Assembly: GCF_048403405.1 (NCBI RefSeq)
Contig: NZ_CP183129.1
DNA from: Escherichia coli
Lineage (GTDB): Bacteria; Pseudomonadota; Gammaproteobacteria; Enterobacterales; Enterobacteriaceae
Reading direction: 5' to 3' (one strand)
Length of the DNA stretch: 64,000 nucleotides
Each line of letters begins with the position of its first letter. Within the stretch, counting starts at the first letter, position 1. The translations under genes were made by a program, and so were the position numbers. Shown here in pieces: positions 25,458-26,438 of this stretch. The notes under the pieces are model-generated. The model did not search any database, was not told the origin of the DNA, and saw nothing but the letters and a program-made list of their open reading frames with translations.

Positions 25458-25466
25458 AAGCCACCG
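25458..25466. repeat. IS1 target-site duplication, left copy (AAGCCACCG)
   Basis: Identical 9-mer directly flanks both IS1 termini. Confidence 0.8.
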
Positions 25467-25481
25467 GGTAATGACTCCAAC

Positions 25482-25985
25482 TTATTGATAGTGTTTTATG
25501 TTCAGATAATGCCCGATGACTTTGTCATGCAGCTCCACCGATTTTGAGAACGACAGCGACTTCCGTCCCAGCCGTGCCAGGTGCTGCCTCAGATTCAGGT
25601 TATGCCGCTCAATTCGCTGCGTATATCGCTTGCTGATTACGTGCAGCTTTCCCTTCAGGCGGGATTCATACAGCGGCCAGCCATCCGTCATCCATATCAC
25701 CACGTCAAAGGGTGACAGCAGGCTCATAAGACGCCCCAGCGTCGCCATAGTGCGTTCACCGAATACGTGCGCAACAACCGTCTTCCGGAGCCTGTCATAC
25801 GCGTAAAACAGCCAGCGCTGGCGCGATTTAGCCCCGACGTATCCCCACTGTTCGTCCATTTCCGCGCAGACGATGACGTCACTGCCCGGCTGTATGCGCG
25901 AGGTTACCGACTGCGGCCTGAGTTTTTTAAATGGCGGAAAATCGTGTTGAGGCCAACGCCCATAATGCGGGCGGTTGCCCGGCAT
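25482..25985 (-). CDS. insB: IS1 transposase InsB (expressed as InsAB' by -1 frameshift)
   Basis: 167-aa ORF matching remembered IS1 InsB. Confidence 0.85.
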
Positions 25986-26179
25986 CCAACGCCATTCATG
26001 GCCATATCAATGATTTTCTGGTGCGTACCGGGTTGAGAAGCGGTGTAAGTGAACTGCAGTTGCCATGTTTTACGGCAGTGAGAGCAGAGATAGCGCTGAT
26101 GTCCGGCGGTGCTTTTGCCGTTACGCACCACCCCGTCAGTAGCTGAACAGGAGGGACAGCTGATAGAAACAGAAGCCAC
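25904..26179 (-). CDS. insA: IS1 InsA (repressor / N-terminal part of transposase)
   Basis: 91-aa ORF with zinc-finger CPSCSA...CSHC matching remembered IS1 InsA. Confidence 0.85.
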
Positions 26180-26234
26180 TGGAGCACCTCAAAAACACCA
26201 TCATACACTAAATCAGTAAGTTGGCAGCATCACC

Positions 26235-26243
26235 AAGCCACCG
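26235..26243. repeat. IS1 target-site duplication, right copy (AAGCCACCG)
   Basis: Identical to 25458..25466. Confidence 0.8.
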
Positions 26244-26438
26244 TAATCCAGCACGGCGAGTAAAGAATTTATTTGAGTAAGAGTCATTAGAGTTTGCTAA
26301 TCAATAATATTAAAACGATTAATTTCTCTAATAGCGTGCCGCCATTTATACTTCTGTTCTGCAAAGTACATCACAATTTGACGCAACCGCAGTAACGGGA
26401 GTGTTGTCTGCGTGCGTCATCCTGACAGGCGGTAGGGT

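Follow-up and report, generated by a model that had tools for sequence, protein, structure and literature searches.

The window, by which we mean the whole 64,000-nucleotide stretch of DNA analysed here, is Escherichia coli chromosome from menE to micF, and within it a complete IS1 splits the gene of a LysR-type transcriptional regulator. We consider it very probable that one simple IS1 transposition inactivated a dispensable regulator of the yfaH type in a single event, and that the outcome is neutral gene decay. The core of an earlier note on this DNA, which had read the region as a recent insertion of a complete IS1 with a perfect duplication into a LysR gene, is supported by the sequence comparisons described below.

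Results

IS1 and its target site

The local gene order is glpT, glpQ, the LysR gene (minus strand), an MFS transporter gene (plus strand), inaA, yfaE and nrdB, in a region that also includes nrdAB. The element and its flanks are as follows.

25458-25466, no strand: left copy of the target-site duplication, AAGCCACCG, read from the sequence and present as a single copy in an empty-site genome
25467..26234, minus strand: complete IS1, 768 bp, with IRL at 26234 and IRR at 25467, co-oriented with the LysR gene
26235-26243, no strand: right copy of the target-site duplication, AAGCCACCG, read from the sequence

The earlier note had placed a complete 768-bp IS1 with a perfect 9-bp duplication at this position, and every coordinate holds. 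Both the length and the imperfect terminal inverted repeats, which start in the GGT(G/A)ATG manner (GGTGATGCTGCCAACTTACTGAT and GGTAATGACTCCAACTTATTGAT, matching between the ends at 18 of the first 23 positions), are those of the IS1 family. The identity of the flanking AAGCCACCG repeats covers exactly 9 bp and goes no further in either direction, and IS1, an element of 768 bp, is known to generate 8- or 9-bp duplications (PMC12428005). A match of 9/9 at two exact ends has a chance of about 4^-9 = 4e-6. Stronger proof of insertion than this estimate comes from a natural empty site in E. coli 2012C-4221, which carries AAGCCACCG once and is identical over 2,324/2,324 nt to the sequence reconstructed without IS1. 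IS1 insertion with a 9-bp duplication is confirmed. A composite transposon and an IS1-mediated rearrangement were ruled out, as the window contains a single IS1, its duplication is intact and its flanks are collinear with empty-site genomes.

A second mobile-element remnant in the window, unrelated to IS1, is an ISNCY-family transposase gene (16476-17621, minus strand) between yfaU of the rhamnonate cluster and glpC; a partial hypothetical ORF adjoins it.

Coding content of the element

The window IS1 is identical to the K-12 copies IS1B and IS1C at 766/768 positions and to IS1A at 761/768. All three K-12 copies share with it the 768-bp length, the inverted repeats, insA, the insB' frame, the A6C -1 frameshift site and the 9-bp duplication; two substitutions (element positions 127 and 704) and the chromosomal site distinguish it from IS1B and IS1C. 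It encodes two overlapping products.

25904..26179, minus strand: insA, 91 codons, GTG start, matching the NCBIfam zinc-binding domain model NF050000 above cut-off and positions 1-81 of NF033558 (transpos_IS1)
25482..26179, minus strand: insAB' transframe transposase gene, 232 aa, through a -1 frameshift at A6C, annotated by PGAP as 'programmed frameshift'

The A6C slip site, AAAAAAC, runs from 25928 down to 25922 (element positions 307-313), and the insB' frame from 25985 down to 25482. A modelled -1 slip yields an uninterrupted InsAB' of 232 aa, and insA, the insB' frame and A6C are likewise intact, giving the gene layout of the IS1 family, insA followed by an overlapping insB' with an A6C -1 frameshift. 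For NF033558 transpos_IS1, whose cut-off is 100, the match to the InsB' part reaches 143.8 bits, and PGAP labels the element as an IS1-like element IS1B family transposase with a programmed frameshift. Judged by its sequence, this copy looks transposition-competent.

The reconstructed regulator is full-length yfaH

Excision of IS1 and one repeat produced a 292-aa minus-strand ORF that starts at 26287 and opens with MTLTQINSLLAVLDYGGFTEASKRLFMTQSAVSQ. The expectation that removal of the element would restore a continuous LysR-type N-terminus was thus borne out, since the whole 292-aa frame was recovered and is matched by a real empty site, for which the annotation of 2012C-4221 gives a LysR-family gene of 879 nt and, divergent from it, an MFS transporter gene. 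The reconstructed protein has both domains of an LTTR, PF00126 HTH_1 at residues 3-63 (E = 6e-18) and PF03466 LysR_substrate at residues 88-267 (E = 1e-36). The nearest solved structures in the PDB, CysB, BenM and OxyR, are all distant, and the NCBIfam models include no equivalog that names a function for the regulator. The equivalog model of the 68-aa K-12 YfaH (NF007272) matches residues 226-292 above its cut-off, and K-12 has at the same place, between inaA and glpQ, only a 207-nt yfaH pseudogene. By this profile match and this map position, the window gene is yfaH in its full length, a gene that K-12 retains only as a pseudogene.

K-12 yfaH (b2238) thus corresponds to the window gene in identity and in chromosomal position, between glpQ and inaA, and is likewise inactivated. 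The two differ in what is left: in K-12 and ~3,100 other genomes the N-terminal ~225 codons and the MFS gene are deleted, whereas in the window the whole coding sequence survives, split by the IS. A literature search for yfaH found no functional study, most matches being unrelated strings.

A 266-aa form of the regulator that begins at Met27, without the first 26 residues of the HTH, occurs on at least 1,000 contigs, including some from Shigella sonnei. It is probably a gene-caller's choice of start in another allele.

The insertion leaves a stub and a remnant

The duplicated 9 bp are nucleotides 45-53 of the coding sequence, which places the insertion within codons 15-18 and divides the gene into two parts.

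26213..26287, minus strand: LysR 5' stub, from the native ATG at 26287 through codons 1-17 to a stop inside IRL
24632..25489, minus strand: LysR 3' remnant plus IRR sequence, with native residues 16-292 at 24632-25466

The first 17 codons and the promoter are indeed cut off, as had been proposed, with coding nucleotides 1-53 left upstream and a 24-aa peptide, MTLTQINSLLAVLDYGGLVMLPTY, as the product of the stub. The downstream remnant lacks native residues 1-15 only, because the duplication repeats codons 16-17. It has two candidate starts, a TTG at 25480 (282 aa) and an ATC at 25489 (285 aa; the PGAP choice, WP_071587557.1). The TTG-initiated residual frame that the earlier note had seen in the IS1 terminus is present, from 25480 down to 24632, and encodes 282 aa. 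This 282-aa product is absent from a collection of 15 billion proteins, in which only the 285-aa PGAP form occurs.

On the Pfam mapping, 13 of the 60 HTH_1 positions, those at the N-terminal end, are missing from the remnant. The encoded protein begins at residue 16 and its NCBIfam alignments start at profile positions 16-24 rather than at 1, and with its HTH_1 incomplete the window copy is a disrupted gene, not an intact family member. In terms of the canonical LTTR fold, we take the lost residues to be helix 1 of its winged-helix domain. This argument is built on the Pfam HTH_1 mapping, not on predicted structure: a single-sequence AlphaFold model of the intact regulator was unusable for placing helix 1 (mean pLDDT 39.8, pTM 0.26). 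The discarded model had helices at residues 3-12, 20-26 and 29-43, in agreement with the canonical LTTR layout, which we did not count as evidence.

As the stub keeps the promoter, and the remnant is promoterless and lacks residues 1-15, the regulator is most likely null. The remnant retains HTH helices 2 and 3, the linker and the whole effector domain, and may have residual activity if expressed.

Transcription and translation at the IS1 ends

We scanned both IS1 ends for outward sigma-70-like sites matching at 9/12 positions or better and found none at either end. The hexamer pairs that span the junctions are poor (TTGGAG-17-TACTGA at IRR and TTGGCA-17-TAATCC at IRL), and neither end thus provides an acceptable outward -35/-10 pair of the kind that makes an IS1 fusion promoter. 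The earlier suggestion that the remnant is driven outward from the IS finds no support in these results. Within the IS, one minus-strand match was found.

26200..26227, minus strand: promoter-like CTGCCA-16-TATGAT inside IRL, at the site of IS1's own weak promoter, the sole minus-strand match of at least 9/12 within the IS

IS1's own promoter is extremely weak (PMC12428005). Any transcript of the remnant would have to cross the co-oriented IS1 by read-through. A scan of the minus strand from the native promoter region to the remnant revealed no terminator-like site, and this, together with the co-orientation, makes low-level read-through into the remnant possible. No Shine-Dalgarno-like sequence precedes TTG 25480 or ATC 25489; this does not discriminate between the starts of remnant and native gene, since none of good quality precedes the native ATG either.

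Fusion promoters created by IS1 have been documented for bla (Prentki et al. 1986) and for acrEF in Salmonella (Olliver et al. 2005), both as cited in PMC9330008. The window shares with these cases an IS1 end within ~200 bp upstream of a transporter gene and an outward -35-like hexamer, but differs from them in that its flank offers no acceptable -10 at the right spacing.

Another likeness is to IS1E in yrhA of K-12, which also lies within a host gene in that gene's own orientation, past the host promoters and without an intervening terminator (PMC12428005). Host read-through at that site raises insAB' transcription and transposition (PMC12428005). In the window, the IS1 is co-oriented ~50 nt downstream of the destroyed regulator's promoter, with no terminator between. 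The situation differs from that of IS1E in that IS1 here destroyed the regulator gene whose own promoter lies upstream of it. LTTR genes are typically negatively autoregulated. The LysR promoter, derepressed by the loss of its own autorepressor, might thus feed insAB' and turn this copy into an unusually active IS1 donor in a clinical clone; we regard this as unlikely. If it were true, the window copy would be the donor fuelling IS1 expansion in that clone. Chromosomal IS1 places number 5-10 in carriers of the insertion and 0-1 in empty-site siblings, except for ~18 in MB31, and this comparison is uninformative on the hyperactive donor, neither supporting nor refuting it.

Distribution and age of the insertion

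The same insertion is present in 4 of 5,426 complete E. coli genomes, with 100% identity over 3,101 nt: MS 69-1 (colon, USA), 4621 (blood, Houston), TUM1226 (Japan) and isolate 68 (Guadalajara, Spain). Of the contigs in the 15-billion-protein collection, 15 encode the chimeric 285-aa product and 510 the identical intact allele; draft contigs end precisely at the IRR junction and have the same flank. The check for an empty site in relatives, run here by genome comparison, found the site empty in 2012C-4221, MB31, TUM14771 and GN02461, although the last three match the window at 100% identity along 24.6 kb of left flank. Over 64 kb, the window differs from MS 69-1 by two indels only, with zero substitutions.

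Since siblings with identical flanks have an empty site, the insertion appears young relative to its haplotype, and the sequences point to a single event that is fixed in a dispersed, human-associated clone. The description of the insertion as recent thus survives on an evolutionary scale, given empty siblings with 100%-identical flanks and carriers that are alike; it fails in the sense of an insertion private to one strain, for this one is fixed in a clone found in the USA, Japan and Spain.

The gyrA gene of the window (37607-40234, plus strand) encodes S83L and D87N, the classic double substitution of the quinolone-resistance-determining region; the source strain is presumably fluoroquinolone-resistant.

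The locus is dispensable

The junction of LysR gene, intergenic region and MFS gene is kept in only ~1,117 of the 5,426 complete genomes; ~3,100 are left with only a C-terminal remnant like that of K-12, and in ~1,170 nothing of the locus is present. The LysR/MFS locus is therefore dispensable, being deleted or absent in ~80% of complete E. coli genomes, K-12 included, and neutral loss becomes the default reading of its disruption.

IS1 has also entered this neighbourhood independently in other strains. In PI7 (pig) it lies in the C-terminal part of the LysR gene (window-equivalent 24737-24745; 1627-2394 in the PI7 locus), in UID2309220009 (urine) in the MFS gene (window-equivalent 26524-26532; 2656-3423 in the locus of that strain), and in GN25 an IS1 of the IS1A type lies beside glpQ (1501-2268 in the GN25 locus). 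These strains are unrelated, and each of the three elements has its own 9-bp duplication and the orientation of the window IS1. We considered an IS1 hot spot and rejected it, since three independent events within the locus itself (those of the window clone, PI7 and UID2309220009) in ~1,117 genomes are about what random insertion gives. A rough calculation (a median of ~10 IS1 places per genome x 2.3 kb / 5 Mb x 1,117 genomes) predicts ~5 genome-hits, and 6 genomes, representing 3 events, were observed in the 2.3-kb locus. This rough estimate points to neither a hot spot nor positive selection at the LysR/MFS locus.

The divergent MFS gene

Two intact features lie beyond the stub.

26288..26438, no strand: LysR/MFS divergent intergenic region, 151 bp, intact
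26439..27629, plus strand: MFS transporter gene, divergent and intact, WP_000660217.1 in carriers and in empty-site strains

The intergenic region presumably holds both native promoters and the binding site of the regulator. It contains one T-N11-A dyad, TCAATAATATTAA, at 26301-26313, a type of AT-rich motif that is common. The MFS gene is likely the regulatory target of the LysR protein; it keeps its own intergenic control region and would now be without a dedicated regulator. Its product is matched in NCBIfam only by generic MFS subfamily models, all below their cut-offs. An Rfam scan gave nothing in or near the LysR-MFS locus.

Discussion

We propose that a competent IS1 transposed once into codons 15-18 of an accessory LysR gene in a recent ancestor of one clone. 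InsAB' would have made staggered cuts 9 bp apart, with repair duplicating AAGCCACCG, and the gene would thereby have been split into a 53-nt stub with the native promoter and start and a promoterless remnant. The regulator would be lost, the MFS gene would be left without its dedicated regulator, and the event would amount to neutral decay at a dispensable locus. As the gene pair has been lost from most E. coli, the insertion is best read in this way; its fixation in a dispersed clone fits hitch-hiking, and selection may have acted as well.

Instead of abolishing the regulator, the insertion could have altered it. The chimeric ORF, made of IS1-end codons and residues 16-292, would be expressed by read-through from the native promoter, the IS1 promoter or both, and would give an N-truncated protein of changed activity, either one that binds effector and oligomerises with a defect in DNA binding or one that is partly functional. 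This possibility draws on a frame of 282 or 285 aa that is continuous from inside IRR, on an IS1 co-oriented with the gene without a minus-strand terminator-like site between, and on the fact that host transcription does cross co-oriented IS1 copies (PMC12428005). In addition, the insB' stop (25484-25482) sits 1 nt before TTG 25480, which makes re-initiation geometrically possible. The insB' frame of IS1 is translated only after a rare frameshift, however, so this coupling would be weak. The protein would also be without the first 13/60 positions of HTH_1, no outward promoter was found, neither TTG 25480 nor ATC 25489 has a Shine-Dalgarno-like sequence before it, and a dominant-negative chimera would find no wild-type copy left to poison. 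Overall, we judge an active chimeric regulator to be quite improbable. Even less probable, to the point of being a very doubtful proposition, is that regulator loss, or transcription out of IRL, changed expression of the MFS gene and was selected in the clone. In its favour, 204 bp separate the MFS gene from the IRL end, which points towards it and has an outward TTGGCA hexamer at 26221-26226; IS1 fusion promoters are on record (as cited in PMC9330008); and the allele is fixed in a clinical clone, presumably fluoroquinolone-resistant (gyrA S83L/D87N), on three continents. Yet a 17-bp spacer puts the -10 on TAATCC, a poor match, and no plus-strand candidate of at least 9/12 starts in the IS end. 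The locus, moreover, is missing or deleted in ~80% of genomes; another IS1 insertion destroys the MFS gene itself, which argues for relaxed selection and not for a need for higher expression; and IS1 hits are close to the random prediction (roughly, ~5 expected against 6 genomes and 3 events).

That repeat collapse misplaced the IS1 during assembly is an explanation to which we give practically no credence. IS1 is multicopy, occupying 5-10 chromosomal places in carriers, and repeats can be misassembled; but an identical structure was obtained in 4 complete genomes produced independently in different laboratories, draft assemblies stop right at the IRR junction, next to the same flank, and an artefact would not create the biochemical signature seen in the perfect 9-bp duplication. 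Simple transposition followed by neutral decay thus stays our preferred reading.

IS1 knock-outs of accessory genes are commonplace, and the kind of event described here is already known and ordinary. With such knock-outs common and the gene pair already lost from most E. coli, its biological weight is small. Its practical consequences concern annotation and typing. In all four RefSeq carriers, PGAP calls the remnant an ordinary CDS, a 'LysR family transcriptional regulator' of 285 aa (WP_071587557.1) with no pseudogene flag; the CDS uses the rare ATC start at 25489, inside IRR, and overlaps the transposase CDS by 8 nt. This labelling of an IS-truncated gene is an annotation error that hides the disruption, and pseudogene counts and pan-genome tables miss what lies behind WP_071587557.1. 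The junctions 25466/25467 and 26234/26235 provide a clean clonal marker for a human-associated, presumably fluoroquinolone-resistant lineage found in the USA, Japan and Spain. The carriers and the empty-site siblings with identical flanks also form a natural near-isogenic pair for the uncharacterised LysR/MFS gene pair.

Other features of the window

An alpha-2-macroglobulin family gene that starts at 42715 has a run of 7 A at ~43450-43456, versus 6 in MS 69-1, and the extra A turns a frame of 1,504 codons into one that stops at codon 249. The gene is intact as WP_001328406.1 in MS 69-1, 4621, TUM1226 and isolate 68, and for a 25,000-nt query the best 15 listed 100%-identical genomes matched 24,999 nt. 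Either a homopolymer sequencing error or a strain-private pseudogenisation accounts for the extra A. In atoE (50949-52271, minus strand), a 10-nt indel relative to MS 69-1 lies at ~51299; the window frame is open (441 codons), and the MS 69-1 copy is annotated as 'frameshifted'. Above the Rfam gathering score, the window contains the MicF sRNA (63738-63831, minus strand, 116.8 bits) and naRNA4/CssrE (60001-60077, plus strand, 73.4 bits), both expected residents of the E. coli region from menE to micF.
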